Shown: positions 7,836-38,137 of the stretch, piece by piece
How the letters are laid out: every line of letters begins with the position of its first letter
Numbering within the stretch: position 1 is the first letter of the stretch
Virus record (IMG/VR): IMGVR_UViG_3300049489_001336
Location: 96,001-160,000 of that record
Strand: one strand, 5' to 3'
DNA from: a virus
Length of the DNA: 64,000 bases
Notes under the pieces: generated by a model
Told to the model about the DNA's origin: nothing
Seen by the model: the letters and a program-made list of their open reading frames with translations, nothing else
Database searches by the model: none
Made by a program: the position numbers and the translations under genes

Positions 7836-7875
7836 AGACTTTTACCAGAGATAGAGGCTAAAAAAGGCCGAAGCC
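7833..7875 (-). promoter_or_regulatory. short terminator-promoter module, identical to 8123-8165
   Basis: GGC-TTCG-GCC-TTTTTTAGC...CTGGTAAAAGTCTATG; 43-bp exact repeat. Confidence 0.75.
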
Positions 7876-16739: not shown

Positions 16740-17171
16740 ATGTCACATTATGAATTAGGTAAACAGACAGCTTTGGTTAAACTGGGGTTTGTTAAAGCGG
16801 CAGGGTTACAGCCGTCTACGCGAGTCATGCTTTCAGAGATCGCGCATGGAGCTGTTCCAGGTCTTGCGGCAGGGGCAGGTACGTACGCCGCTACAGACGA
16901 CCCGATGCTTGCTGCAGGAGCGGGACTGGGCGTGGGTTCGCTTGGGTATGGCACAAAGCTTATGCTCAATCATCCAAGGAAAAGGGATTTGGACTTTGTA
17001 AGTCGCATGCATAGGAACACACGGCAAGGCTTAGACGATATCAATGGCAAAATTAGAGCAGGCGCTGACCCTGCTATGTATGACGGCGTAAAAAAGATTA
17101 AGGAAACGCAGCTTAAACGGGACAAGGAAGAGATGGATAGACTACAAAGTAAATTACAAGGACTTCTTTAA
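16740..17171 (+). CDS. hypothetical protein with Gly/Ala TM-like segment; N-terminal YxxGxxxALxKLG motif
   Basis: TATAAT-N6-ATG directly upstream; motif shared with 17197-18051. Confidence 0.65.
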   Translation: MSHYELGKQTALVKLGFVKAAGLQPSTRVMLSEIAHGAVPGLAAGAGTYAATDDPMLAAGAGLGVGSLGYGTKLMLNHPRKRDLDFVSRMHRNTRQGLDDINGKIRAGADPAMYDGVKKIKETQLKRDKEEMDRLQSKLQGLL

Positions 17172-17196: not shown

Positions 17197-18051
17197 TTAC
17201 TCTTTACCATCAACGGTATCAAGTAATGCAGTAGCTCCGTACGTTCCAAGGGCTACTGCAGGTAACTTCATTGCAGTGCCTGCGTAGGTGCCAAAGGCAG
17301 GTAACAACGTCTTAATACCTTTTACCATATCTCTGCGTGTGGCTCCGTTGCGGTACATATTCAATAAACCATGCCCACTGGCATAAGCTTCTTCCGCAAG
17401 TACGGGCACCGTCGGTAGCACAGAGCTGGCTAAATAAGCGTTGCGTTTCGTTTTACTTTCCTCGCCAGGATTCGATTTTTCAGCGTCATACGCGTATAAA
17501 CCTGGAATAAGCCCCAACCACGGTTTACTGAACGTGCTATACCCTAAATTGCCCAACATATGCATTATTTTAGGGGTTTTTTCAAAGTAATGTTTATGCC
17601 CTAACTCATGCGCCAAAGTAGCTGGATTTTTCTGGAATGACGCCTCGCCTAACGTAATCACGTTTTTCTTTGAACTAAAGGATCCCCGGTATGGGGACGT
17701 TCCAGGTTTCCCCCGTTCAACGTTATGTCCTTGAACGAGCTTTTCATAAATCTCTTTTTCTCTAGCCAAATCGTCTAAGTGCGCCTGGCTAGGCTTCTTT
17801 GCATTGGGCGTTAAATGTGCTGTATCTGCATAATAAGATTTATTCAATTCATCCACGATAGCGTTATTACTATGCGTCCCGACCGCGTCACCTAAGAGGT
17901 AACCTGAGTAACCTCCCCCTGCTAGTAGACCCGCATTGAGAATTCTCTGGTCTTCATCACTTAATTCTTTAGCTACCGGCGCAGTAGATGAGCCTGTACG
18001 CATACCCAGTTTGGTAAGAGCAAAATGACGGCCTGCAATATAAGAATTCAT
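17197..18051 (-). CDS. putative HExxH zinc metallopeptidase with membrane-like C-terminus; N-terminal YxxGxxxALxKLG motif
   Basis: ATLAHELGHKHY and a downstream LAEEAYAS; TATAAT-N6-ATG. Confidence 0.6.
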   Translation of the reverse strand: MNSYIAGRHFALTKLGMRTGSSTAPVAKELSDEDQRILNAGLLAGGGYSGYLLGDAVGTHSNNAIVDELNKSYYADTAHLTPNAKKPSQAHLDDLAREKEIYEKLVQGHNVERGKPGTSPYRGSFSSKKNVITLGEASFQKNPATLAHELGHKHYFEKTPKIMHMLGNLGYSTFSKPWLGLIPGLYAYDAEKSNPGEESKTKRNAYLASSVLPTVPVLAEEAYASGHGLLNMYRNGATRRDMVKGIKTLLPAFGTYAGTAMKLPAVALGTYGATALLDTVDGKE

Positions 18052-23833: not shown

Positions 23834-26122
23834 ATGAAAAAAATCCATAACAATCATGGCTTTCATGCAAACGCATGCCAACCGCATAGCACTATACTTC
23901 GCCTTAGCGGTGACCAACTACTTTGGTGTTTGTCACCAATCTGGCCACGCAATCGAACTGAGGCGCTAAGTCAACAAACCATCCGACAGGCCCCCACCTT
24001 ACTCCGACGTAACCGCAATCTCGTAGATGTCGGGGTATGGAAGATGGTGGACGTTGATGTGTGCCTACATGATGAAATTGGTTGGTTCATCCTCCATTGG
24101 CCCCGTGTTTTGGACACTTTTTTGAAAAGCGGAATTACTATCGACCGCGTAACCCGCTGCATACCGAGCCTCAAGACCCTGCAGACAGCCTGCAGGAACG
24201 ACCCTGCAGCGCGCTACGCGGCCTGGCGAAGCCTCCAAAGCACTTTCGACGCCCAGATGCCGCCAGGCGCCCTTTTGCGGGCTCCTATGAGCCTCACAAG
24301 CGTTTTGTCCGAGTTTTCCACAGAAAAATACGATACAGCTGGAAATCCCCAGGGGTACCTAGATGAATTTTCAGTAGTGAAATGTGGACAGTTGTCCGCT
24401 ACAGCGCACGAAGGCAATGTTTTAGACCTCGAAACACGCCTAAACCGACTGTCAGTTTTTCAACTTGTAAATTTGATGAAGATCAACCCTGTACTGCTTG
24501 ATTTGGGTCATCCCCTCATCAAGTTCTTGTACATGGCGCTCATGCGGCTACACACCACGCCAGAGCACCACGGGTGGGCCCACTGGGGTATCTTATGGAC
24601 CAAAAAAGGTCTGGTGTTCAACCCAGCCATCGCAGCAAAGCACGTGGAAGATGACCCAGCCGTGGCAGTACAACTTGGTTTGCGTACGTTCACAGATGAG
24701 CGTGCGCATGACCTCATTGCGCGCACGACAGACCCCAGCACGTTCTCGCGTAGAGACCTTGCGACGTTCCCTCCTATCGACAGCTTGATTACGAACACAC
24801 CTGCGTCGAGAGAGCACATTGCTAAGTCTATTGAGCCCCTGAAAAGCCTGTACACAAACACCGAATTAGCTGTGTATCAATCGTGCCACAAGCGAGAGTG
24901 TTTGTATTTCCCTATCGAAAGTGAAAAATCAGGGATTATTCAATATTTCAAACAACTAATACTTGTCTCCGCTGAACTCACAAAACCTGACCCTAAACTC
25001 CCTCGGGCCTTGCGGCGCTGCTTTCCCCAGTTCGCACCCAAGACTAAAAAATACATCCCAAAACACCGAGGTGTGGAGCATTCCAAACTCGATTTGGAAG
25101 ACAAAGAACGCATGAGGCCTGTCGCCCTCTGTCAGTTCAACGCTTTTGATCTCTCTTATTGGGACCCCGACCGTTCCGAAACCCTAGAAGAAGGTCTTCC
25201 TTTCCAACCTATGACTATGGAGTTCGCACAATGGGCAGGCTACCAGTACATGTCTTTTCCCGTCGAACTCGCAGAAAAGCTTCCTGAACTCAAAGAGCCT
25301 GTTCTGCTCAAAGACACGGTAATCAGCGCTAATTTAGGTTGGCAGGAATACCCTACGTCTGTAGGAACGGGCGTCGAGCACATTGTTTTGCGCATCAATG
25401 ATGATGTTCTGACAGTTAAAAGCCCTCTCAATACCGTAGAAATTAACTACGGTAAACAAGAGCGGCGCCCCGATCGTTCTCCCAATACGTTCAAGCCCAA
25501 AGTAGGGATTGGGTACTTTATTCATCCTACCTTATTTGTACCAAATGGGCCGGCACACCTTCTACTGGACGCCATCAAGGACAACCGGCCAGGTATCAGT
25601 ATTGCTACAAAGAATCTCATAGAGGCTTTTCAAGTTCTTTGTCGCTGGATTTATAGCCCAGAACTATGCACAGGCATGATCTCGGGAGAACTCGAAGCCG
25701 CACTAAGCCCTGAGAGTCCAGTTATCCTAGACACCCCCAGTGCCCGGCTAAAGTTTTTGCAAGAAAGAGCCACCCGTTCTCGTTATCATGTGCCTCCCCA
25801 TGAAAGTGAGCTCGGCGCCAAAGGTCAACGCTCCAAACAAATGGTCGACTACGACCGGTTTTTGTATTGGTACGTCGCCAAATACGAGCTGGCTGTTCTG
25901 TGGGAAACCAAAAAATGGGCTTTCTGCAAAGAAGACCAGGCCCAGTACATCTGCAAACGCTGGATGCGTTGGCGCCGCGAACTCGCAAGCATGCCGCACC
26001 TGGTGGATCCTTATCCTGGGATTTCTCGCAGGGACGTGAAGGGCTTGATTAGTTACAACGACTGGAACAAGCTCCTTACTACCGCCAATAAGATGTTTGG
26101 CCGCTCCCCGATGGAGCTCTGA
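23834..26122 (+). CDS. large orphan protein (762 aa; start uncertain)
   Basis: Long ORF opposite to its neighbours; no motif recognised. Confidence 0.75.
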   Translation: MKKIHNNHGFHANACQPHSTILRLSGDQLLWCLSPIWPRNRTEALSQQTIRQAPTLLRRNRNLVDVGVWKMVDVDVCLHDEIGWFILHWPRVLDTFLKSGITIDRVTRCIPSLKTLQTACRNDPAARYAAWRSLQSTFDAQMPPGALLRAPMSLTSVLSEFSTEKYDTAGNPQGYLDEFSVVKCGQLSATAHEGNVLDLETRLNRLSVFQLVNLMKINPVLLDLGHPLIKFLYMALMRLHTTPEHHGWAHWGILWTKKGLVFNPAIAAKHVEDDPAVAVQLGLRTFTDERAHDLIARTTDPSTFSRRDLATFPPIDSLITNTPASREHIAKSIEPLKSLYTNTELAVYQSCHKRECLYFPIESEKSGIIQYFKQLILVSAELTKPDPKLPRALRRCFPQFAPKTKKYIPKHRGVEHSKLDLEDKERMRPVALCQFNAFDLSYWDPDRSETLEEGLPFQPMTMEFAQWAGYQYMSFPVELAEKLPELKEPVLLKDTVISANLGWQEYPTSVGTGVEHIVLRINDDVLTVKSPLNTVEINYGKQERRPDRSPNTFKPKVGIGYFIHPTLFVPNGPAHLLLDAIKDNRPGISIATKNLIEAFQVLCRWIYSPELCTGMISGELEAALSPESPVILDTPSARLKFLQERATRSRYHVPPHESELGAKGQRSKQMVDYDRFLYWYVAKYELAVLWETKKWAFCKEDQAQYICKRWMRWRRELASMPHLVDPYPGISRRDVKGLISYNDWNKLLTTANKMFGRSPMEL

Positions 26123-26227
26123 CACAAGATATTGACACGCACACTGCCGTGGAGTAGTGTTTTAAGGCTGCGTCGTGTGGTCGTGCACGTCTGTTGGTAA
26201 TGGTGGACTCCGAGGGTGTTGGCAAGC

Positions 26228-26274
26228 ACTCTCGGAGTTTTTATTTTTGAGCTAAAAAAGAGCACTAGGCTCTC
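26228..26274. terminator. bidirectional terminator between convergent units
   Basis: Plus strand: ACTC-TCG-GAGT-T5. Minus strand: GAGAGC-CTAGT-GCTCT-TTTTTAGC. Confidence 0.65.
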
Positions 26275-26762
26275 ACAATACACTGCTGGTCATTTAATTT
26301 AACTTTGACTTGAACAGCCTTGGTCTTCTTGGCCGGGCTGTCCAAGTACAAGATGCTGTGGCAAGTACGTTCGATGTCGTCGAAGTCAGTGATATAATAA
26401 TCGACTAACCTCTCCGTCTTGTAACATCGATAAATCACTGAAATCACCTTTGGGAAACCTACCCACAAAGACCCGTGAGTCACGTTGTGGGTTGCACTAA
26501 CTACACTGTGTAGAGTCCACCAAAAATGGCGGTTTCTTTTCAGCATACCTTGTTCTGGGTGCTCATATTTTATAGAGAGGTTGTTGTACGTTGAATGTCT
26601 CTTAACGTACCAGGTAAGCCCCAAAGGCGCATAGCAATAAGGCAGCCATGTGATTAGATATGGTTTATAATTAGAGTCTAATACGTGGCCGCTTTGTATT
26701 TCCCAAACGTAATCCACGCGCCTTCCCAATAATTCCGGCAATGCACGCTCATTAATGTACAT
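26265..26762 (-). CDS. tandem array family A member
   Basis: LLGRRVDYVWE...FW...HGSLWV...VISVIY...DYYITD...VKVKL. Confidence 0.75.
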   Translation of the reverse strand: MYINERALPELLGRRVDYVWEIQSGHVLDSNYKPYLITWLPYCYAPLGLTWYVKRHSTYNNLSIKYEHPEQGMLKRNRHFWWTLHSVVSATHNVTHGSLWVGFPKVISVIYRCYKTERLVDYYITDFDDIERTCHSILYLDSPAKKTKAVQVKVKLNDQQCIVRA

Positions 26763-26767
26763 ATGCT

Positions 26768-27295
26768 TTACGCCTTGACGATGCGTCGATCATCATCGAG
26801 TTTAACTTTGACTTGGGGTTCGATGCCTTGGTTGTCTAATGCCAAAGGGCTAAGGCTCTCAGCCAAATAGCTACTGTTAAAATTGTAGCTATAATAATCG
26901 GTATAGTTGGTTTTAACCGAGGAATCATAGCGGTATAGCACTGCTATAATCCGAGGGAAGTCTACCCACAAAGAAACGGACTGAACGCCTAGTGTATAGC
27001 GGGTAAGCCGTGCTAAATTTAACCAAAAGTATTTGTTTTTAGCCCTAGTTTGTAGGTTAAATGTCCCTAACCTAACGTAAGGTTTACGAATGCTATCCGT
27101 ATTCGTAGTTGTACGACTCAAAGAATGACGTTCAACGTCGTATGTCAGGCCGTTTTGGTTGTAGTAAATAGGTAACCACGTCGAGTGTTCAGGGAACACG
27201 TAAGGGATATTGTCAGTAGCAGGCCCTGGTAATTCCCAGACATTAAGCACTCTTCGTCCAAGCAGAGACTTCACGACGTTGGCGTTGACGTACAT
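26768..27295 (-). CDS. tandem array family A member
   Basis: LLGRRVLNVWE...FW...VSLWV...IIAVLY...DYY...VKVKLD. Confidence 0.75.
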   Translation of the reverse strand: MYVNANVVKSLLGRRVLNVWELPGPATDNIPYVFPEHSTWLPIYYNQNGLTYDVERHSLSRTTTNTDSIRKPYVRLGTFNLQTRAKNKYFWLNLARLTRYTLGVQSVSLWVDFPRIIAVLYRYDSSVKTNYTDYYSYNFNSSYLAESLSPLALDNQGIEPQVKVKLDDDRRIVKA

Positions 27296-27786
27296 ATACG
27301 TTTGTCCTTATCAAGGAAAATGCGGACAGCTTTAAAATCAGACCATAAAACGAACCCAATATACCCATTACAAAGATTATGTGTGTCTAAATCACTTATG
27401 TAGTAGTCAACACCAAGCTTGGTATTTACCACCGTAATGCTCTTGTGGTTGTCTAAAAACCACAAAGTGATGTGTCTTGTATACCCGCGTGCGGCTACGC
27501 GCGATAAAAACAGCCAAAAGTCTTCGTAAAAGGCACGGGTGTCTGCATCAAGATCTCTGTGATTTTGATGTATGCACTTGTTATTGCGCCTCCATACGTG
27601 TCTTTTATCAGTGTAAAAACTGACTCTATTGTTGTAGTACAGCTGCGTAGGCACTCCTGTAGTGCTGGTAGGCCAGGGTTCGTGATCTACGATGACGTAA
27701 TTACGCGCATGTTCGATGTCTAGCTCCCATACATGACAAAGTTTACGCCCTAGGACGTACAACAAAAGGTCTTTACTTACGAACAT
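27271..27786 (-). CDS. tandem array family A member
   Basis: VLGRKLCHVWE...FW...HITLW...DYYISD...VRIFLD. Confidence 0.75.
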   Translation of the reverse strand: MFVSKDLLLYVLGRKLCHVWELDIEHARNYVIVDHEPWPTSTTGVPTQLYYNNRVSFYTDKRHVWRRNNKCIHQNHRDLDADTRAFYEDFWLFLSRVAARGYTRHITLWFLDNHKSITVVNTKLGVDYYISDLDTHNLCNGYIGFVLWSDFKAVRIFLDKDKRICTSTPTS

Positions 27787-28267
27787 ACGGTAGGTCTTTA
27801 TTGTTTACGTACGTTACTTCGTCTATCGGCGGGCGGGACTCAGTGTATTCACTGCAGATAAACCTGTTGCACTCTCCAAAGGTCTTAAAGTCAGTGATAT
27901 AATAATCGTAACAACCACTACACCTAAACACCGCCACTACTTTGTAATTCGCAAAGACCCACAACGAGATATGCTGAATATAACGTTCACGTGTAACGTT
28001 TGTTAAAAAGAACCAGAAGTTCTCACTGAACTTCTTGAACCGCTCTGATTTACCCTCTAATGACTCTCTGTAATTAACATCAGTTCGATCCTTATAAACA
28101 CTGATTCGCGTATTACTGTTAATGCAACTAGGCACTATTGACGTGCTTGTAGGCCATGCGCAATACGCTGCAAACGTATTATCTAGACAGAACTGGGCGT
28201 CGAGTTCCCATACGGCAATAAGCGTACGTACATCGACAGCCTTTAAAACGTTGGACGGTATTCGCAT
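27773..28267 (-). CDS. tandem array family A member
   Basis: MRIP...AVWE...FW...HISLWV...DYYITD. Confidence 0.75.
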   Translation of the reverse strand: MRIPSNVLKAVDVRTLIAVWELDAQFCLDNTFAAYCAWPTSTSIVPSCINSNTRISVYKDRTDVNYRESLEGKSERFKKFSENFWFFLTNVTRERYIQHISLWVFANYKVVAVFRCSGCYDYYITDFKTFGECNRFICSEYTESRPPIDEVTYVNNKDLPYVRK

Positions 28268-28743
28268 ACTTTGCCTTGGTCGTCTAATTGAATGCGCGCA
28301 TACCCTGGTGCTCGTAATACTGCACCTCTAAATAGCAGATAATGATTATTAAAACGCGTCCCATGGACGTGAGAATAGTAATAATCTACGTAGGTAGTAT
28401 GGCTTGAGCGCTGATGAAACACGGAAATGACGCTTAACCCAAAAACCCATAACGTGACGTGGTTGTTTGACACGGTTATCAAACCGCGGAGTCGTTCGTA
28501 GAACGAGATACGTGATTCTCGGTTTTCGTCATAGTCGCCCTCTTTTAATATATCCCTATTACGCCGTTGCCCCTTTCGAACGCTGTAGCTTTGAACTTTC
28601 CAGGGGGACAGTAAAGGGTTGCCTGTAAAAATCGTCCAAGTAAGGCCGTGTTTCTTTATGTCTACAAAAAAAGAATCTATCTCATGGGTATAATCTAATT
28701 GAAGCCCGTTTATTCGCTCGAAGACAACTTGGGGGACATACAT
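28243..28743 (-). CDS. tandem array family A member
   Basis: MYVP...HVTLWV...VISVF...DYY...ARIQLD. Confidence 0.75.
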   Translation of the reverse strand: MYVPQVVFERINGLQLDYTHEIDSFFVDIKKHGLTWTIFTGNPLLSPWKVQSYSVRKGQRRNRDILKEGDYDENRESRISFYERLRGLITVSNNHVTLWVFGLSVISVFHQRSSHTTYVDYYYSHVHGTRFNNHYLLFRGAVLRAPGYARIQLDDQGKVCEYRPTF

Positions 28744-29213
28744 AGGATTCCCTCTTTATTGAGAAAAATAGAACAAAAAGATTCGTGATTAGCTACGTCC
28801 TGATACAACGCATTGTGATTAATGAAATCAGTAGGATGGACATGGGCGTAATAGTATTCAGTGTGCTCTACGTGATAGATCACCGAAATGACGTGGTAGT
28901 TGAACATCCACAATGACACGTGCTGCGTACTGTACATAACAAAGGACGACAGGCGTGTGTAAAACTCCGCGTACATTTGCCATTCTGAGTTTGCTTTTTC
29001 GAATTTATTTTTACCCTTTTTTAAGCTGAAAGTACGCACTATCCAGGGCACTAAAACAGCGCGCGCAGGATTGGTCCATGTGGCTTTGCGTGCTAATCCA
29101 CGAAAGTGGGCGGGTTCCATTTCAAAGACGCAATCTAATTTATTGCCCACAATGGCTTGGGCTACGCGATATGGGACGCGCATATTAGGCCTTACAAATG
29201 ATGTGGTTTTCAT
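28710..29213 (-). CDS. tandem array family A member (start likely MRVPYR)
   Basis: HVSLWM...VISVIY...EYY. Confidence 0.75.
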   Translation of the reverse strand: MKTTSFVRPNMRVPYRVAQAIVGNKLDCVFEMEPAHFRGLARKATWTNPARAVLVPWIVRTFSLKKGKNKFEKANSEWQMYAEFYTRLSSFVMYSTQHVSLWMFNYHVISVIYHVEHTEYYYAHVHPTDFINHNALYQDVANHESFCSIFLNKEGILCMSPKLSSSE

Positions 29214-29655
29214 TGAGGCGAATCTTCACGTGATCTCTCCAATAAACGGGTTCGTAAATTCCCAGGTAACCCGTGACGTGCTCCCGTTGCAACGTGTAAA
29301 AACAATGCCAGTACATGATTGACCCACTGGCGACGTGCAGTGCAAACACGTGCTCTTCGCGAGAGAGCTCTAAAAGAGTACAGTGGTAGGAGTCCATTGC
29401 TTGCCATTTGGTCTGCATCTGGGACCATAGGTGCGAATTATTGGCGATGTTAAGCAAGGTGGTGGTGTACGTGCCATACCCTTTGCCTATACAAATACAT
29501 TCGCATTTTTTGTGCGGAGGCACAGTGGCGCGTACAACCATCGCGCTGTGTATGGTAACGCGTTGCGTATTGAACCGTACCGCGTCGTGGATTTCGTAAC
29601 AGTTGTAGAGCTTCCGCCGTAGCAGTACATCGGCGACTGCTTTAGGTACGCGCAT
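29185..29655 (-). CDS. tandem array family A member
   Basis: MRVP...LLRRKL..CYE...VKIRLN. Confidence 0.7.
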   Translation of the reverse strand: MRVPKAVADVLLRRKLYNCYEIHDAVRFNTQRVTIHSAMVVRATVPPHKKCECICIGKGYGTYTTTLLNIANNSHLWSQMQTKWQAMDSYHCTLLELSREEHVFALHVASGSIMYWHCFYTLQREHVTGYLGIYEPVYWRDHVKIRLNENHIICKA

Positions 29656-30120
29656 TTACCACCTTATAACAATGTGCCTGTTTACCCCTTTTACCAGATA
29701 GAGCGCCTCAGTATTCGTGTATACGAATTTACTGGCGATGTATTCGTGATTAGGTTTGTAATAAGCGCCTGTCTCGTTGAATTTAGACAGGTAATAGTTA
29801 ACTCCGCCTTCGTTGCGCGTTAGTACAGTAATTACCCAACCGCCGTCCAACAGCCATAAACTACTGCTTGTAGCGTATTCACCCGTATAGAGATTTCTTA
29901 GAGTTTGCCAGAACGGAGCATCTACTTGGATAGAATCATCCCAGACCGCCTTGCCTTTATTAAGCGAAAAACGCAAGGCGTGCAGGACAGGATGCAGTCC
30001 TTGTGTATTATTTACAAAATTTATATGCTTGGTGGATGTGAAAGGCTGTCCACTAAACTCAAGGCAACTCAAGAGGCAACGCCCGTAGAGTTTGTGAGCG
30101 ACTTTACGAGGGACGTACAC
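29656..30120 (-). CDS. tandem array family A member
   Basis: MYVP...FW...SLWL...VITV...NYY. Confidence 0.72.
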   Translation of the reverse strand: MYVPRKVAHKLYGRCLLSCLEFSGQPFTSTKHINFVNNTQGLHPVLHALRFSLNKGKAVWDDSIQVDAPFWQTLRNLYTGEYATSSSLWLLDGGWVITVLTRNEGGVNYYLSKFNETGAYYKPNHEYIASKFVYTNTEALYLVKGVNRHIVIRW

Positions 30121-30562
30121 AGTACACTACTCCGTCTTTATTGAGTCGCACTAGACACTGGGATTTGTGCTTTGTATTGTCAAACAATCGGTCCCAGTAG
30201 GAGGCTACCTTATCATGCACCGGAAATGCGTCGTTGAAATCGCAGTAGTAATACTTACGAAGGCGTTGATTGTCTTTGTTTATATACGTGACCTCGTACA
30301 ACACCAAATTATGCGCAAACAACCACATGCTAACATTCTTGGCGCTAATGCCTGTACTATTCACAAATAGGTGCTGATAAAACAGACCCATATCAAACGT
30401 ATTAGTCCTTATTTTAAATTCTCTATGATTAACCGAAATACGCTTGTAATTAGTAGCGATGCCCTTAGCAAGGCATGCGGCTTCGGATAACCACTTAAAG
30501 TCCATGGCGCATTCAAGGCGCTTGCCTTCGATGAGTTCCCCTACTTCGTTAGGGACGTACAC
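30104..30562 (-). CDS. tandem array family A member
   Basis: MYVP...NVSMWL...KYYYCD...LVRLN. Confidence 0.72.
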   Translation of the reverse strand: MYVPNEVGELIEGKRLECAMDFKWLSEAACLAKGIATNYKRISVNHREFKIRTNTFDMGLFYQHLFVNSTGISAKNVSMWLFAHNLVLYEVTYINKDNQRLRKYYYCDFNDAFPVHDKVASYWDRLFDNTKHKSQCLVRLNKDGVVYCVRPS

Positions 30563-31046
30563 AGGTTAATTCTCCTGTTTGAGGGTCGTGTTTTAAGTAA
30601 ATGCCTGAATGCTCCAAAGAACTTATTTTACCCAAAAACTGATGATTCGTGAAATTGGTTTCATCAAATATTGTTTGGTAGAAATGATGAATAAGAGGGT
30701 GTTCATGCTCCACGTGCAGAACCGAGGTGTAAATTGTAATGATTGTTTTGAAATTACAAAATAGAAAAGTCATTAAATCGGCATGATCTCGTTTAAAGAA
30801 TATACGTATATGCTCTGCTATATTATCTATTAGGACACAGTGGCGGTCATTAGGGATGACACCCCTTACTTTTGTATAATCAGATTTGCGTAATAAAGAC
30901 TCAACGCTTTTACCTTCAACAAAGCCTGATTGTAAAAACGCCCTAGTCAAACTCCGATTGACTTCAGGACCTGTCATCATAGCTATACGCTTTACCTTTA
31001 GCCCCGGTATTATATGAGCGACTTCAATGGGGATTAACAGAGACAA
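30549..31046 (-). CDS. tandem array family A member (divergent)
   Basis: LIP...IPG...MTFLF...IITIY...CVRP. Confidence 0.65.
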   Translation of the reverse strand: MSLLIPIEVAHIIPGLKVKRIAMMTGPEVNRSLTRAFLQSGFVEGKSVESLLRKSDYTKVRGVIPNDRHCVLIDNIAEHIRIFFKRDHADLMTFLFCNFKTIITIYTSVLHVEHEHPLIHHFYQTIFDETNFTNHQFLGKISSLEHSGIYLKHDPQTGELTCVRP

Positions 31047-31543
31047 ATGACACCTTCTTCATCCAGTTTAATACGAACTAATCCTGCTCGCGGTCTGTCA
31101 CTACACGCGGATCCGTGGTTAATGCCTAGTCTCGGATTAGTAAGATAAAATGTTTTTGTGACCCATCCACTTTCTTGAAGAGGTCTGTAGTGATAAATAG
31201 ACACAATACGGGTAGACTTTAATACCCACAATGTGACATTTACAATCGCTTTATTATTGGAAATGTTTATAACACTCGCCCAAAAGTCCTGGCTGTGTTC
31301 GTACGCTTGTGAACGGTCCGATAACCTTGGTCTGGTAAGGCCCTTACGTACAGACCGAACCCTGTAAGGAAAAGAACTTCGAATGATAAAGTCATCGGGA
31401 CAAGGGTCCAGGTCTTTTAGTAGCTCTGGTTTAACCATTTCTATGCAGCAAATGATCGTGTCACCGCTAATCTTTTTTGCGAGGAATCTAGGAATCCACA
31501 TCGAACTTAGCCATTTCAAATTTAATACTTTCCTGAAAAACAC
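31034..31543 (-). CDS. tandem array family A member (start likely MWIPRF)
   Basis: CCIE...DFW...NVTLWV...IVSIY...VRIKLD. Confidence 0.72.
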   Translation of the reverse strand: MFFRKVLNLKWLSSMWIPRFLAKKISGDTIICCIEMVKPELLKDLDPCPDDFIIRSSFPYRVRSVRKGLTRPRLSDRSQAYEHSQDFWASVINISNNKAIVNVTLWVLKSTRIVSIYHYRPLQESGWVTKTFYLTNPRLGINHGSACSDRPRAGLVRIKLDEEGVICLC

Positions 31544-31967
31544 TAGCTTTAACTATTCGTATATGTAACGTATCTGTAAGAAAACCTACGTGAGAAAGAA
31601 GCATCCACCCTGAATAATCATCAAAAATGTAACAAGCCATGTGAACTAGTCCTAATTCACTACGCCGTATATCGATGTAATTAATCCAATCGTCGAGCAA
31701 TCGATGTATAAGCACCCTAGCTACACCCTTTTGTATTCTAATGGCACCTTTGTTAGAGATCCGCGTGACATAGGCATATTCAAGCCACTCGTTACACGTA
31801 ATCGAATGCGGGTTTTTGAGGTTGAGCGGGTATCTAGTAAGATTGACCCAGCTAGTCGGGCTACTCAGCTCTAACTGATATTTTAAACTTTTACCCCTTG
31901 TTTCCTTTTTTATTTTCGTTAGTGCTTTGCTGTAAAGACGAGGAGCAACCTTGATATACGTTGTCAT
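31488..31967 (-). CDS. tandem array family B-related member
   Basis: CYIFDDYSGWMLL. Confidence 0.65.
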   Translation of the reverse strand: MTTYIKVAPRLYSKALTKIKKETRGKSLKYQLELSSPTSWVNLTRYPLNLKNPHSITCNEWLEYAYVTRISNKGAIRIQKGVARVLIHRLLDDWINYIDIRRSELGLVHMACYIFDDYSGWMLLSHVGFLTDTLHIRIVKASVFQESIKFEMAKFDVDS

Positions 31968-32389
31968 ACGTGCTCACACAAAATCACTGAAGCGTCAGCT
32001 CGACATTCAATGCTGTAGTACTCTAACGCCCCGTCATGTCTATAAAACAAAACCCAACCCGTAAAATCAGAGTACACAAAAACCGACGCTGTATCGAAAG
32101 GTACAACACTATTACGCGTGCGTATTCTTATTTTAGCGATTAATGCTCGCTCGTTACGTATACTATTCGAATACGCAGACGCCAGACATCGGCCTCTAGG
32201 AAAAGAAATATTACGTTGATCTAATGTTAAAGCAGGATACCCTGGCGAAAGACTCTCAGGTTTAAATACGTTTCCTGTTAGCCTGTAGTACGGATAGACT
32301 TTGCTAGGTAACACGAAGTGATAGAGTAATTCCTCTTTTCTTCGTTGATACTCTTCGCGTAATTGTTTAAAAAGGTAGTCTTTGGTCAT
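31964..32389 (-). CDS. tandem array family B member
   Basis: EEYQRRKEELLYHFVLP...VYSDFTGWVLF. Confidence 0.75.
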   Translation of the reverse strand: MTKDYLFKQLREEYQRRKEELLYHFVLPSKVYPYYRLTGNVFKPESLSPGYPALTLDQRNISFPRGRCLASAYSNSIRNERALIAKIRIRTRNSVVPFDTASVFVYSDFTGWVLFYRHDGALEYYSIECRADASVILCEHV

Positions 32390-32807
32390 GATACGCGACT
32401 AAGCACAGGCTACTCGAATGCCACTCAAAGGCGTAGTAAGCAGTATCGCCTTGGTTAAGGCTAAACAAAACCCAACCGGTATAGTCACGGTAAACATAAA
32501 CGTTAACACACAGAATGTCTGTAGGGGTATTCCGGATTTTTTCGCGTACTCGCGCTAAGAGTACATGGTCATTTTGTACCGGGTCTAGCGATACACGGTT
32601 ACCGTATCTAGACTTTGGAAAAGATAAACTTCTTTTTTCAAGAGTATTTAATGGGTATTTGTGTGAGAGGCACGGTACGTCATCGTACGCGTTGTTTACT
32701 CCACCGTATATAAAATACCTAGGCGGCAAAACGAAGTAATAAAGCAGTTCCTCCTTTCTACGTTGATACTCTTCTTTAATCTGTTTACGTAGTAGCGACT
32801 CGTCCAT
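32367..32807 (-). CDS. tandem array family B member
   Basis: EEYQRRKEELLYYFVLP...VYRDYTGWVLF. Confidence 0.75.
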   Translation of the reverse strand: MDESLLRKQIKEEYQRRKEELLYYFVLPPRYFIYGGVNNAYDDVPCLSHKYPLNTLEKRSLSFPKSRYGNRVSLDPVQNDHVLLARVREKIRNTPTDILCVNVYVYRDYTGWVLFSLNQGDTAYYAFEWHSSSLCLVAYHDQRLPF

Positions 32808-33270
32808 ACTGTCTCTTTAGCTTTTTTACGCTTTCATGCCGATGCCGCAGTGTGTATCTATTATCGCGTACTACGCGGTGTACGCTGATATTAAACACGT
32901 CATTATACGTGTAGTGAATAACGACGTAGCCCTCTAAAGTATCCGTCAAATACATTGACACATGCTTTAGGCCAATACCATTCCCTCTATAATTATCGTA
33001 GATATTGTACGTCGTGTGAAAGAACTTATCGAAGAGATCATCGCCGCCTTGCCTTTTAAAGCGAACACAACGCATCGCTGAAGGGTGCCGAGGTATCCGT
33101 TTGTAATAAGACAGCACTCGATACATTGGGTAGTTCGTACCAAGACTCGCTAGGTCTTTGGTAATACAACGCCCTGTAAACCATTTAGCGCGGCACAGGA
33201 TGCTAAAAGCTTCTGGATCGAGTTCGATGACGCGTACGTAGATAAGAAATCCAAGAAGGCTTGGGATTAT
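32785..33270 (-). CDS. family A-like member; frame open to 33270 with no ATG/GTG/TTG before 33126
   Basis: Upstream extension reads IIPSLLGFLIYVRVIELD, matching the family N-terminus; HVSMYL further on. Confidence 0.55.
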   Translation of the reverse strand: MIPSLLGFLIYVRVIELDPEAFSILCRAKWFTGRCITKDLASLGTNYPMYRVLSYYKRIPRHPSAMRCVRFKRQGGDDLFDKFFHTTYNIYDNYRGNGIGLKHVSMYLTDTLEGYVVIHYTYNDVFNISVHRVVRDNRYTLRHRHESVKKLKRQYGRVATT

Positions 33271-33815
33271 TCATGTGTTTCTATATGTAAAGGAAACTTA
33301 TAAAAGCACTCAATGTCCGTATCAGAACCTCGTCGAGTGCTCCAACAAGCCGCGTATGTAGTCGCCATACGCGTATTGTCGAAGTAAGTGACATCGGTGT
33401 AGATGGCTTCTATGACTGCGAAGCTGCCTGAACTGCCTCCTTCAAAGACGTGCACGCGGCAGTAATCAAAGTTATCGCTACGTGCTGCGTGAAGGATGCG
33501 ATCAACCTCACGCATTAAAATGTTGTTGTGCGCAGCCGCAAGACGCCTAACCCTACCCTTGAGAACGTTATAAATATCTACGTCGGCTAGTTCAGGAATT
33601 ACAGTACGAGCTAGCGTCAGATTGCGAACAGGCTTTTCTCCTTTTCTGTAATTTTTGTATTCAATAAAGGTGAGATCCGCGTCGGCAATGCTATTCGCAG
33701 CCCACGCATCCTTATAAAGATGAATGCTGCTCGTGATATAGTTTTCAATCGTAAACAAGCGCTTCTTGATTTTTAGTAATGCGCGTAAGGGACTGTTATT
33801 GTCATAGCGTATCAT
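33267..33815 (-). CDS. tandem array divergent member
   Basis: Similar size; CRVHVFE-GG-hairpin. Confidence 0.65.
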   Translation of the reverse strand: MIRYDNNSPLRALLKIKKRLFTIENYITSSIHLYKDAWAANSIADADLTFIEYKNYRKGEKPVRNLTLARTVIPELADVDIYNVLKGRVRRLAAAHNNILMREVDRILHAARSDNFDYCRVHVFEGGSSGSFAVIEAIYTDVTYFDNTRMATTYAACWSTRRGSDTDIECFYKFPLHIETHE

Positions 33816-34417
33816 GCTGAAAACCGCTCGTCGTATTTAGTAATCCATTCTTGATCTAGGCTTAGTTGAACGTCTTCTCTAATTTCTTCGCCTCTCACGG
33901 GCCAATAAATAGTACGGGCCACGTACCTGTAATAGCAGGTAGACCCATCATCTTGTTTAAAGATATACACAGTACTGTGTAAAACAGTAGGCTTACCTCT
34001 GTTAATCTTATTTAAGATGGCTCGGTCCGCGTTCTTATATAGATGCGTGGATGAATAATCACGCCGTATGCTGCTAACCACTGCTTGGCGGGCGCGATTA
34101 ATACCTTGCTCATGAAATCGTACTTTCTTGCCGGCACCGCGGTAATACGATATCGTGATTTTATCACTGTGTGTATGGGGTGTAACACAGATACGCCCTG
34201 CTAAATGGGTCACTGGCGATAGCCAACCGTACACATCTTCAATACACGCTACGTACTTGTATCCATTGAACTCTAATGTATCACGTAATTGTCGTATTAA
34301 CGTAATAGGGTTCATTGTAAAGGCAATCCCAGGTGTCTCTTTCTCCGTATTGAACCGTTTCAGCCAAGTATAGAGGTACTTCATTGACGATATCGACGTA
34401 AAGAGCGTAAACCACAT
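33812..34417 (-). CDS. tandem array divergent member (start likely MNPITL)
   Basis: VACIED...HSTVYIFKQDDGSTCYYRY. Confidence 0.65.
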   Translation of the reverse strand: MWFTLFTSISSMKYLYTWLKRFNTEKETPGIAFTMNPITLIRQLRDTLEFNGYKYVACIEDVYGWLSPVTHLAGRICVTPHTHSDKITISYYRGAGKKVRFHEQGINRARQAVVSSIRRDYSSTHLYKNADRAILNKINRGKPTVLHSTVYIFKQDDGSTCYYRYVARTIYWPVRGEEIREDVQLSLDQEWITKYDERFSA

Positions 34418-34802
34418 ACTTTAAATAGTTGTTGGGTGTTCCGTATAAGTACAACGTACTGTATTGAACACGATTAAGACGTATCCAAAGACGTTCTAAT
34501 AGGAGCATATCAACGTAAGACTGTGCGAAAATTTTCTTTAGGTAACCAGTACCCGTCGCGTACAAGAGATACCGTTTGCGTCCACTGTATAATCCCCATT
34601 GGCTGTATTTATCCAACCGATACATCGACAGGAAAATGTCCTCATCATAACACGCTGCGGTACCGCTGTAGTCGCCTTTGTAGTGCGTATTAGGGGTCAT
34701 CCAGGCTTGAGGCTGTTCAATACACGCGACTAAATTTGTTCGATTACCTGTTAGTTGTTTATGTTGTTCTTTTATTACTTGTAGGGCTTGCGGACTTGGC
34801 AT
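34281..34802 (-). CDS. tandem array divergent member
   Basis: VACIEQ...YSTLYLY. Confidence 0.65.
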   Translation of the reverse strand: MPSPQALQVIKEQHKQLTGNRTNLVACIEQPQAWMTPNTHYKGDYSGTAACYDEDIFLSMYRLDKYSQWGLYSGRKRYLLYATGTGYLKKIFAQSYVDMLLLERLWIRLNRVQYSTLYLYGTPNNYLKYVVYALYVDIVNEVPLYLAETVQYGERDTWDCLYNEPYYVNTTIT

Positions 34803-35329
34803 AATACAACGGTCTTATGCAGCTTTTCAGAGACGGCCAGCCAGTCGTAACGCGCCGAGTTGATGTGGAACAAATACACGTAGATTTGTTTTTTACTTTT
34901 ACTTTCGATGTAACGGTAAACAAATAAACGCCCGTATTCTGTGTGTAGGTCTACATGCCCTTCTACGAGGGCGTGTTCACGGGACACTTTATTCAACGAA
35001 TTAAAGTACGAAACAAACGGCATAAAGTACGAAGATTCCCGCATTCTATTTAATGCTTGAATCCTGTAAGCATAAGGATGGTCTCTATTCTTTAATAACA
35101 AAGACACACGCTTTGATCGGTACCCGTTGCAGTCGGCTGTAAACGTAATGGACCACTTTCTCATTTTAAATCTAGTACCTGCACCATAGCTAAGCGCACT
35201 AAACGTCGAAATATCTTCGTAAATGCCAACGCGCTCGCCTCCATGCCTTAGGATGTAATCGTGACAATGCTTTAATGCCGCAAGGCACGACATTCTTTCT
35301 ATGGTTTGGCTAGGTTTAAGTAAAGGCAT
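34775..35329 (-). CDS. tandem array divergent member
   Basis: VGIYED...GHVDLH..GRLFVYRY. Confidence 0.65.
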   Translation of the reverse strand: MPLLKPSQTIERMSCLAALKHCHDYILRHGGERVGIYEDISTFSALSYGAGTRFKMRKWSITFTADCNGYRSKRVSLLLKNRDHPYAYRIQALNRMRESSYFMPFVSYFNSLNKVSREHALVEGHVDLHTEYGRLFVYRYIESKSKKQIYVYLFHINSARYDWLAVSEKLHKTVVLCQVRKPYK

Positions 35330-35834
35330 TTAACGTAATGATGGTTTGGCGCTGTATTAGTGCGTACCTATTTTGGTTAGGTACAGGTTCAGGGTACCAC
35401 GTGAGCTTATGCGCACTGTCATACCCTAATTCTCGTACAAGCACACCGCCTTGTTTTGTGTCTTCAGTAAGATATACAAAACTAGTCATGTATTTACTGG
35501 TTGGAAAAGGAATGCTCCAAAGGGCTTGTTGTACTCTTGAAAAAGCCACGGTGTGCTTATTAAGTATAATAGGTTTTTTCTGATGGCTAATTACTTTGTC
35601 AGCCGCATGCATGGCTGTATTGAGCACAGTTTCACCTAGTATATGGTCACTCCTATTTTCTACGACCGCCACAAGGCGTAGTCCCAGACTGCACAGCTCT
35701 GTATGCGCTCGTTTAGTGGCGCTATACAGGCGTCGCAATTTACACGATACTTTAGGTATTCGTACGTAGTCATCCCTCATCAATTGAATAAACAGAGGGT
35801 TCAAAGCCAAGTCGAGTATAGATGCGTTGTCCAT
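35316..35834 (-). CDS. tandem array divergent member
   Basis: VAVVEN...TSFVYL. Confidence 0.62.
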   Translation of the reverse strand: MDNASILDLALNPLFIQLMRDDYVRIPKVSCKLRRLYSATKRAHTELCSLGLRLVAVVENRSDHILGETVLNTAMHAADKVISHQKKPIILNKHTVAFSRVQQALWSIPFPTSKYMTSFVYLTEDTKQGGVLVRELGYDSAHKLTWYPEPVPNQNRYALIQRQTIITLNAFT

Positions 35835-36298
35835 ATGTGGTTGTCGTTGGAGGTTAACACGTCCCAGGCAGGTATTGGGTTTGAGTAAGCGCCGCGTCTT
35901 TGTATGAAACCGTAGAGCAGAGACGCCTTTGCCGTAGTTTCTGTGTGGTAATAACTTAGGTACTCACCGCGTAATACATCTCCGATGTTATGCATACTCA
36001 CAACGGTGTTCTTCGTGTACATGCCGTAGCCTACGTAGCTCTTTTTACTAGTTGAAGGATAAACACTCATCCGGTTAATGGGGTAAGGCGTTTTAGCGTG
36101 TACACTGTACAGAGGGTGATTGTTGTAGGGGTAAACCAAAGCCCAATACTCGTTGATATCTGTAATGTGAGTTGTTACTTTAAACCCTTGGCTCAAGCAT
36201 GTCTTATGCAGTTCTTTAGCTTTAGCAAAACACCGAAAATAAGACTTATTACAATAGACATGGTTGGCGAAGCTCATTTTAGGGAAAGCTCTTCCCAC
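35801..36298 (-). CDS. tandem array divergent member
   Basis: Size, Tyr/His richness, coupled overlap. Confidence 0.6.
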   Translation of the reverse strand: MGRAFPKMSFANHVYCNKSYFRCFAKAKELHKTCLSQGFKVTTHITDINEYWALVYPYNNHPLYSVHAKTPYPINRMSVYPSTSKKSYVGYGMYTKNTVVSMHNIGDVLRGEYLSYYHTETTAKASLLYGFIQRRGAYSNPIPAWDVLTSNDNHIWTTHLYSTWL

Positions 36299-36789
36299 TG
36301 CTGGTACCTGTTTAAAAAGTGCACTCTGTTAAAATGCCTCGTGTCTTTACCAATAGGTTCCCACTGAGTCGTCTGGGTCATAAAGTAGTGTTGATTAAAT
36401 TGATAAAAAGTCATATAGAGTGAACGGTCATGTCTAATACATGGGTGAACATTAAGTATTTGAAATAGACGAGAATCCTCTTCACCCACAGCACTCGCGG
36501 TTTTATGCAGATACTCCTGTGTGTAACACTTAAAAATAAAAGATGGCGAGTGGAGGCTCTTCACAGATAACCCCTCGCCATCTACGTACGCGCGTGGAAC
36601 ACTATGTTCCAGTTCGTTCTTGTACGCAGCGTCTAGCGTATGGGACACGCCCATCCTGGCGTGGTTAATAAACCACCACCAGTGAAACGCGTCCTCAATA
36701 ACGCGTAACTTTTTATATTTTTCGTAGTGTTCCCGTTCATACCGGGGAAGAAACTGAAAATAATAGGTCAGAGGTCGAGCGGCTTCCAT
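36274..36789 (-). CDS. tandem array divergent member
   Basis: LRVIED...YMTFYQF. Confidence 0.6.
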   Translation of the reverse strand: MEAARPLTYYFQFLPRYEREHYEKYKKLRVIEDAFHWWWFINHARMGVSHTLDAAYKNELEHSVPRAYVDGEGLSVKSLHSPSFIFKCYTQEYLHKTASAVGEEDSRLFQILNVHPCIRHDRSLYMTFYQFNQHYFMTQTTQWEPIGKDTRHFNRVHFLNRYQQWEELSLK

Positions 36790-37298
36790 CCTTCCTCCGG
36801 AGTATCTTCATTGTACTCCCATTGATCAAATACGCGCGTGTACACGTAGTAGTAATTGCCTGACGACTGCTTAAAGACTTGTAGATTCGACGAATCCGCA
36901 ATCAGCGGTTCGTTGTACTGAACCGCGTATTTGCGAAATAGACTTACAAGTCTTTGTTCATAGTCATTGATTGGTTTTTGTTCCTGAACCAAGTCAATCA
37001 ACGAATGTTTTCGCAGAATAACCTTGATCACTTTTTCAGGAATCAACATGTGTACGCTGTGAATGCGCCAGTGTAGCCCCTCTTCTTCAAGGTGGTGATC
37101 TACAATGTCCGCAAACCGTTGACTCGGACCTACGTACGTGAGGTCGTATTGCGTCTTGACGATTTGGTGCGACTCCACCGAAGGGTCTTGGAGCTTCTTT
37201 TTGACAATCTCATAGAGGTTGTACACCGCATGGGCATTCGCAAGCGTAGTTTCGTACTGCTTCTCAGTAGATGACACAGGACTCTCCTCGTACGGCAA
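36768..37298 (-). CDS. tandem array divergent member (first in operon)
   Basis: SNLQVFKQSSGNYYYVY resembles the 33812 motif. Confidence 0.62.
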   Translation of the reverse strand: MPYEESPVSSTEKQYETTLANAHAVYNLYEIVKKKLQDPSVESHQIVKTQYDLTYVGPSQRFADIVDHHLEEEGLHWRIHSVHMLIPEKVIKVILRKHSLIDLVQEQKPINDYEQRLVSLFRKYAVQYNEPLIADSSNLQVFKQSSGNYYYVYTRVFDQWEYNEDTPEEGWKPLDL

Positions 37299-37491
37299 AC
37301 TCAGCCATCGTTTTTATGAGGTCAAATAGATTAGGCTGATATTCAGGCCCTTCAAATTCAATTACTTGAGACACATCCGAACCAATGTAAATAGCCCGTG
37401 CTTCTTCCGACATAAGGTCTAGGTTCTGTTTGGTAGTGAAACCCAAACATCTTCCGTCATGTCCTTTGAGGGCTACGTAAAGCATACGCAC
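37264..37491 (-). CDS. hypothetical protein
   Basis: 75-aa ORF. Confidence 0.55.
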   Translation of the reverse strand: MRMLYVALKGHDGRCLGFTTKQNLDLMSEEARAIYIGSDVSQVIEFEGPEYQPNLFDLIKTMAEFAVRGESCVIY

Positions 37492-37615
37492 CTTTAATTA
37501 AAAAGCCTCGCTTGGTTTTACCCAAACGAGGCGACCGAGCTGCGACACCTGTAACATGAAGGGGGGGCGAACAGGCGACTGGAATGAAGGGGGTGGGGCG
37601 TATTCCGTTGCAGCG

Positions 37616-38137
37616 TCAGGTCGTCAGCGAGTCTTCCACAAATGCCGGGGCACTTGCAACATATTCTTCTACCACAGGCGGGGTATCCGTAGAGTAAGTA
37701 ATAAAATTGCGGGCTTCTTCAGGCACAAATGCCTGCTCTTCAGCCTCTTCAACAGCTACTGCTGCAGCCGTTTCAGGTTCTGCAAGGGCACTTGCTGGTT
37801 CTTCTGCAAACACAGGTTCACTCTCTGTAGCTTCAACGCCTTCGGGTGCTGCCGCTGCTGCTTTAACCTTGGGCTTGTTCTTTGAACCCTGAGGACGGCC
37901 CCTGGGTTTACCGCTCAGTTCACAGAGGTAAAGCTTGTCTTTACGCTCACGGACCTGGAAAAACTGCCCGTCTACGTTCACCGTGGCGCCGTTTGCACAA
38001 GTCTTGATGGCCTTGAGGGCGTCTTGGACGCGGCGCTCAGCGACATCGAGGTGCTCCATGGCAGCATTGTACTCAACCAGAGCTTGGCGAACGTCGGGAC
38101 TTTGGGTATTGGAATCGCTCATCGTAAAACTCCCCAT
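37616..38137 (-). CDS. small protein with one AT-hook and an acidic disordered tail
   Basis: KPRGRPQGSKNKPK. Confidence 0.65.
   Translation of the reverse strand: MGSFTMSDSNTQSPDVRQALVEYNAAMEHLDVAERRVQDALKAIKTCANGATVNVDGQFFQVRERKDKLYLCELSGKPRGRPQGSKNKPKVKAAAAAPEGVEATESEPVFAEEPASALAEPETAAAVAVEEAEEQAFVPEEARNFITYSTDTPPVVEEYVASAPAFVEDSLTT

Follow-up and report, generated by a model that had tools for sequence, protein, structure and literature searches.

A tandem array of 23 co-oriented genes in an uncultured freshwater phage, with an old eleven-member orphan protein family

Results

Organization and composition of the array

Analysis of a 64,000-nucleotide stretch of DNA (hereafter the window), corresponding to bases 96001-160000 of the 189,879-bp IMG/VR virus record IMGVR_UViG_3300049489_001336, which is rated complete by CheckV, indicated that its minus strand carries a tandem array of 23 small genes. 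The source is an uncultured freshwater phage of ~190 kb, and ~6% of its genome is taken up by the array. Positions are those of the window unless the genome is named.

26265..37298, minus strand: whole array, from g01 (3' end) to g23 (5' end), 23 co-oriented and mostly overlapping genes, as established from the list of open reading frames (ORFs), the junctions, shuffled sequences and a Logan contig

The ORF list and the translations showed 23 consecutive minus-strand ORFs of 113-184 amino acids (aa), and the 22 junctions between them comprise 18 overlaps of 4-35 nt, three abutting pairs (0 to 5 nt apart) and a single gap of 140 nt. Stop-free stretches of at least 140 codons per strand numbered 22, while mononucleotide shuffles gave a mean of 0.12. 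This head-to-tail layout had been described in an original prediction made by a model from the sequence, and was confirmed, as was the richness in Tyr, Trp and His reported there: Tyr makes up 6.95% of the array proteins and 3.24% of those in the rest of the genome (2.1-fold), His, Trp and Cys are raised 1.9-, 1.7- and 1.5-fold, respectively, and Ala and Gly are halved. The products are mostly basic, with isoelectric points (pI) of 8-10, g23 being an acidic exception (pI 5.3), and no hydrophobic leader or membrane-spanning stretch was evident in them, as judged by eye only.

The array is AT-richer than its flanks, as had been proposed, but the guanine-plus-cytosine (GC) content in 2-kb windows is 0.41-0.45, against 0.47-0.52 in the flanks, and not the 35% given for a sampled line. 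GC is lower in the array at all three codon positions, and the drop is largest at positions 1 and 2, where it is attributed to the amino-acid content; at position 3 the drop is smaller (0.46 in the array versus 0.51, p 0.002). The array is real, and the original observation as a whole is partly confirmed.

Sequence relationships and age of family A

26265..31501, minus strand: family A, 11 paralogs g01-g11 of 152-175 aa with 9-40% pairwise identity, analysed by BLASTP, alignment, leave-one-out hidden Markov models (HMMs), a tree and a Mantel test

BLASTP linked g01-g06, g08, g09 and g11. When each member in turn was left out of the HMM and all 596 ORFs of the genome were searched, every family A member ranked straight after the other ten, nine of them at E-values between 1e-9 and 1e-23, g07 at 7.7e-5 and g10 at 0.025, the last two being the most divergent. 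The full profile matched the phage's own genome at exactly 11 places, all of them inside the array. The eleven consecutive genes g01-g11 do share the motifs given in the original prediction.

The mutual nearest relatives within the family are the adjacent pairs g01/g02, g03/g04 and g05/g06 (40, 30 and 35% identity), and sequence distance is correlated with physical distance (Mantel p 0.035), both of which point to local tandem duplication. Since synonymous divergence (dS) is saturated between the paralogs, it was replaced by the proportion of identical residues whose codons differ synonymously. Among the closest pairs, 57-65% of the codons for identical residues differ synonymously, versus 64-66% expected at saturation, while 32-40% amino-acid identity is retained. 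Saturated synonymous sites together with the identity that has been kept indicate old copies under purifying selection. We conclude that old tandem duplications, local in extent, gave rise to the array, which purifying selection has since maintained.

The term 'ancient' in the original prediction consequently holds, the synonymous sites being saturated even in the closest pairs, while 'accordion' is a misnomer: the copies are widely diverged, and gene order and gene lengths are unchanged in a second sample. Recent amplification of the accordion type is ruled out by the 9-40% identity combined with the codon differences at identical residues.

Predicted structure of family A

An AlphaFold2 model computed on the 11-sequence alignment of family A gave a mean predicted local distance difference test (pLDDT) score of 73 and a predicted template modelling (pTM) score of 0.71. 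The predicted order of elements is a strand-helix-strand unit (residues 1-23), a low-confidence stretch (residues 32-69), a 20-residue helix and a six-strand meander. The N-terminal unit is modelled at a pLDDT of about 90 and is the most conserved part of the family; its 23 residues end in [VC]-x-E, and the remainder of the protein is also homologous. The least conserved segment is an insert, 30-55 residues long in the family, of which the g01 copy is given as an example.

26553..26693, minus strand: hypervariable insert of g01, residues 24-70, with pLDDT below 50 at residues 32-69

The conserved columns fall mainly in the hydrophobic and aromatic core, and include in addition P4, G13, E21, S/T98, N134 and H135. 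As modelled, family A is an orphan family with a conserved alpha+beta scaffold and a hypervariable insert.

In the fold comparison that the original prediction had suggested, Foldseek found nothing at E <0.1 for the family A model in PDB or BFVD; a wide structure search with VIA-align gave no match above background. The ESM Atlas model of g06 was poor (pTM 0.19), and its structural neighbours are meaningless. A reading of the H-x-[ST] motif as that of a 2H-phosphoesterase was dropped, each protein having only one such motif and no fold match being found.

Database searches and distribution

Among 1.84 billion representative proteins, the profile of family A retrieved proteins of the phage's own genome only, and word-indexed searches of 5.8 billion proteins with families A, B and C (the last two are described below) likewise returned its own genes only. 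No array protein matched PHROGs at E up to 0.01-0.1. Pfam, PADLOC and NCBIfam gave nothing above threshold, the best E-values being about 0.01-0.02, each for a single member, and PDB sequence profiles gave nothing at E <0.06 for families A and B. The earlier statement that no family could be recognised stands across all these collections.

Megablast with the array against 50,697 phage records gave no match, and no relatives were found in IMG/VR with the flanking 762-aa protein, a family A member, the DNA polymerase exonuclease subunit or g26 as queries. The conserved proteins of the phage show 26-48% identity at most, to scattered phages; in tblastn the helicase and the phrog_1735 protein found distant phages only (at most 48% identity). 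Nearly the same phage is present in three other samples at 99.97-100% nucleotide identity. A 25.8-kb Logan contig from one of them has unchanged gene order and gene lengths over the whole array, and two shorter contigs are 99.97-100% identical; these contigs consequently offer no polymorphism usable for the ratio of nonsynonymous to synonymous rates. The array genes are seen in one phage lineage, and no relative was found in any other organism.

The remaining twelve genes

The genes upstream of family A fall into two small families and a set of genes with weaker or no links.

31488..32807, minus strand: family B core, g12, g13 and g14 (g13/g14 E 1e-33; g12 weak, E 0.003-0.04)
32785..33270, minus strand: open frame region of g15, 113 aa as called from the ATG at 33126, weak reciprocal best match of g12
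33267..33815, minus strand: g16, singleton of 182 aa with no pairwise or HMM link
33812..34802, minus strand: family C, g17 (167 aa, ATG at 34315) and g18 (173 aa), E 1e-8
34775..37298, minus strand: g19-g23, five genes of 165-184 aa with no significant pairwise link, g20 and g23 being weak reciprocal matches

The pair g13/g14 had been described as near-identical. It is 38% identical overall, and near-identity is confined to a 17-residue N-terminal stretch, which has 8 synonymous differences at 16 identical residues and is therefore not a product of recent gene conversion. Both g12 and g15 attach weakly to this pair as reciprocal best phmmer matches (E 0.02-0.04), g22 is a possible third member of family C (shuffle p 0.003), and g17 and g22 are weak reciprocal matches. 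Such weak reciprocal best matches within the array are far above the ~4% expected by chance. The ESM Atlas model of g16 was poor (pTM 0.37) and its structural neighbours are meaningless.

Upstream of its ATG, in the region 33127-33274, the frame of g15 continues without a stop for another 47 codons, through the array's single gap to the stop of g16. An ATG that overlaps the latter stop lies one frame off g15 and opens a 23-codon ORF only, and the call of 113 aa is identical in the second sample. Judging from these frames, g15 is probably a 161-aa member whose 5' end has been cut short by a frameshift; the 5' region points to a 1-nt frameshift that has become fixed, to a programmed one or to a start codon of non-canonical type. 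The extension begins with a family-A-like N-terminus. With it, the protein matches the family A signatures locally at two places in collinear order; the total score is not significant (p 0.12), and the N-terminal part by itself has p 0.012.

A core motif, H-[VIMSGCL]-[STA]-[LVMC]-[WYF]-[VLIMF], defined post hoc once the alignment had been seen, occurs in 8 of 22 array ORFs, g12, g15 and g17 included, at equivalent relative positions, versus 0 of 218 other ORFs. The AlphaFold2 model of family B is of low confidence (pLDDT 49, pTM 0.40), too low for a fold search; it consists of a helix, a disordered insert, a helix and four strands, an order which is that of the family A model. The post-hoc motif, the order of elements in the family B model and the matches of the extended g15 together hint at a shared origin.

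Boundaries, expression signals and neighbouring genes

The array is delimited on both sides by hairpins.

37505..37532, minus strand: strong hairpin terminator with an 11-bp stem and a T-run, 14 nt upstream of g24, 5' boundary of the unit
37264..37491, minus strand: g24, acidic protein of 75 aa, first gene past the upstream terminator, overlapping g23 and not a family member
26258-26274, minus strand: small hairpin with the genome-typical TTTTTAGC tail, holding the stop of g01, within the 3' boundary (26205..26274)
26205-26240: 16-bp hairpin, terminator of the convergent 762-aa gene, part of the 3' boundary beyond the g01 hairpin

In family A the ribosome-binding site of the next gene sits inside the conserved C-terminal L-[DN]-x-[DE]-G codons, which together with the overlaps of 4-35 nt is consistent with coupled translation. 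Bounded by terminators, the array forms a discrete unit whose 23 genes (24 including g24) are translationally coupled. Upstream of it the candidate promoter TTGGGT, 17 nt, TTTAAT is weak and near-leaderless, and overlaps the terminator at 37505-37532. A promoter search by k-mers detected a strong cassette in another part of the genome, and none upstream of the array.

That cassette occurs on the minus strand in eight near-identical copies, at about 8441, 9465, 9877, 10200, 15549, 15897, 16290 and 16689, and is absent at the array. Its parts are, in order, a GC hairpin, TTTTTAGC[CT], TCATAAATCTCCC..TTTCCC, TGGTATAGGG, TTTTAACAAGGAGAAA and ATG, and each copy is followed by a small gene. Its sequence resembles an extended -10 promoter combined with a strong ribosome-binding site, which a set of highly expressed small genes would share. 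A second recurrent motif, TTTTTAGC[CT] followed 7-10 nt on by GGTAAAAG, was identified at 7864, 8154, 15098 and 20778 on the minus strand, and may represent a further class of promoter, which perhaps serves small RNAs.

The genes upstream of the array on the same strand code for a DNA polymerase exonuclease subunit, a deoxynucleoside monophosphate kinase and a helicase, while a long plus-strand block at genome 20-54 kb lies far from the array. Just upstream, a 173-aa protein (37616-38137, minus strand) has a long, acidic, low-complexity C-terminal half rich in Ala, Glu and Pro, and gave no family match. Two direct copies of CCCCCTTCAT, 28 nt apart (37556-37602, minus strand) and the only two in the genome, sit between the stop of this gene and the hairpin terminator. 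On the other side, the convergent gene (23834-26122, plus strand) codes for the 762-aa protein, which matched neither PHROGs nor Pfam and has no relative in either the phage or the IMG/VR collection.

Eight ORFs elsewhere in the genome, otherwise unlike one another, carry a G-x3-A-x3-L-G motif at residues 6-9, a candidate N-terminal cargo tag; the first ~20 residues of g01-g24 lack it throughout.

Genome starts 25143, 41451, 53676, 69779, 73721, 75200, 112740 and 113197: the eight ORFs with G-x3-A-x3-L-G
16740-17171, plus strand, and 17197-18051, minus strand: the last two of these ORFs, which lie in the window

Discussion

Proposed role of the array products

The evolutionary and structural description given above is secure, and a function for the array is inferred as follows. 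We tentatively favour, by analogy and as possible rather than probable, a reading in which the products would form a panel of intracellular, host-directed binding or inhibitor proteins. The infected cell would produce them jointly, together with the products of the adjacent genes for replication and nucleotide metabolism. On the common scaffold, every paralog would display its own insert or surface, aimed at its own host target, be it a defence protein or a host factor. The absence of relatives among 1.84 billion proteins fits a fast-evolving accessory gene set. An arms-race or inhibitor function, which the original prediction had proposed, is plausible, and that interpretation is overall partly supported: 'one fold, variable surfaces' stands for family A, with its modelled core and insert, and is at most hinted at for the other 12 genes, where the family B model is of low confidence and shows the same order of elements.

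Several results weigh against this reading. The family A fold gave no informative match, so that 'inhibitor-like' rests on analogy, and a role in nucleic-acid binding, or as virion proteins associated with DNA, would also agree with the basic pI and the abundance of aromatic residues. No convincing promoter was found for the array unit, which has a strong terminator immediately upstream. A shared scaffold is demonstrated for 11 of the 23 genes only: HHalign probabilities between families A and B, A and C, and B and C are each below 1%, and the family A HMM scored none of the 12 non-A proteins above their own shuffles (p 0.09-0.8). Because of these two results, the claim that the divergent members share a strand and a hairpin by descent is not established, and the descent of all 23 genes from one ancestor is a possibility that we regard with some doubt.

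These comparisons lend weight to the view that the array has no common function, family A being an accessory family that has expanded, and g12-g23 a collection of unrelated small families and ORFans that accumulated in a hyperplastic, permissive stretch of the genome, with similar sizes and hairpin motifs arising by coincidence or from generic beta-hairpin patterns. The post-hoc definition of the shared motif and the low confidence of the family B model agree with it as well. Against it stand the restriction of that motif to the array at equivalent relative positions, the unusual Tyr/His/Trp-rich composition and narrow size range common to the families, the excess of weak reciprocal best matches inside the array, the helix, insert, helix and four strands in the same order in the A and B models, and the collinearity of extended g15 with both family A signatures. 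We consider this view unlikely, though it deserves serious attention.

The main rival to host-directed binders would have the proteins travel in the virion, either inside the head or as ejection proteins, and enter the cell with the DNA. T4 targeting peptides are cleaved after (L/I)-x-E, and the conserved N-terminus of family A with its terminal [VC]-x-E recalls them; the basic character of most array proteins would also agree with packaging. A precedent is offered by paralog family B of phage SPN3US, all members of which were detected in heads (PMC5694885). The family A N-terminus is, however, confidently modelled into the fold, unlike a removable peptide, and the array lies among replication genes, far from the plus-strand block. 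The G-x3-A-x3-L-G N-terminal tag is carried by 0 of the 23 array proteins, and neither PHROGs nor the 1.84 billion proteins revealed any sequence relation to a phage virion family. A search of the phage's own genome for a Peptidase_S77/S78 prohead protease gave no match, which is uninformative since the S77 control was silent in every genome, and the Pfam prohead-protease and HK97 capsid models gave no match in this divergent genome. Packaging is rated as rather improbable.

It is very improbable that the array proteins bind nucleic acids and have as partners the candidate small RNAs of the phage (Y-RNA-like and retron-like), one or a few proteins per RNA: the basic pI and the richness in aromatic residues and His would suit such a role, but no known RNA- or DNA-binding domain or fold was matched, adjacency is the sole link, and the array is set off by its own terminators. 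The extension of this idea, by which the 23 proteins would be matched partners of those RNAs and protein and RNA paralogs would have co-diversified into a multi-channel ribonucleoprotein system, is rated as slightly less probable still.

Comparison with known systems

A close likeness to the array is found in paralog families of large phages. Family B of SPN3US (gp83, gp138-154, gp161 and gp237) has 20 members, 17 of them from the consecutively numbered genes gp138-154, all found in heads by mass spectrometry and of unknown function, and its copy number is reported to vary from 2 to 20 between related phages (PMC5694885). Like this family and the phiKZ-like head paralog families, the array consists of about 20 diverged, mostly consecutive paralogs or putative paralogs in a large phage. 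Unlike SPN3US family B, to which it shows no sequence relation in PHROGs or the 1.84 billion proteins, the array is known here from genes alone, and the demonstrable single family comprises 11 of its 23 genes.

Poxvirus K3L is an example of a genomic accordion. In phage T6 a counter-defence locus undergoes SegB-driven segmental amplification (PMC13096335). The array resembles both in having head-to-tail tandem copies that arose by local duplication in a virus exposed to pressure from its host. Accordion copies, however, are recent, near-identical in DNA and variable in number, while the array copies are 9-40% identical with saturated synonymous sites, and their layout is unchanged in the 25.8-kb Logan contig, a comparison limited to three other samples.

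The internal protein (IP) loci of T-even phages code for polymorphic small basic proteins that share an N-terminal capsid-targeting sequence, at least one of them, IPI*, being an anti-restriction protein. The array has in common with them small basic proteins with a conserved N-terminus and a variable remainder, but family A is conserved through the whole scaffold, and the predicted fold includes its N-terminus.

African swine fever virus carries the multigene families MGF110, MGF360 and MGF505 in a large DNA virus genome. These are likewise old, diverged tandem paralogs that take up several percent of the genome and are presumed to be host-directed, by mechanisms that are mostly unknown; they belong to different protein families without homology to the array, which comes from a single phage lineage.

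Large phages repeatedly spend several percent of the genome on old, diverged tandem paralog families, and we know of no mechanism established for them. If the members of the array were true target-specific binders or inhibitors, their scaffold would provide a new framework for binders, of natural origin, from which new counter-defence proteins could be drawn. As it stands, the array is a well-documented ORFan expansion of the kind familiar from large phages, a new protein family and not a new kind of system, and to these expansions it adds a clean example in which an 11-member family with a confident scaffold-plus-variable-insert model has been kept under long-term purifying selection with no outside relative.

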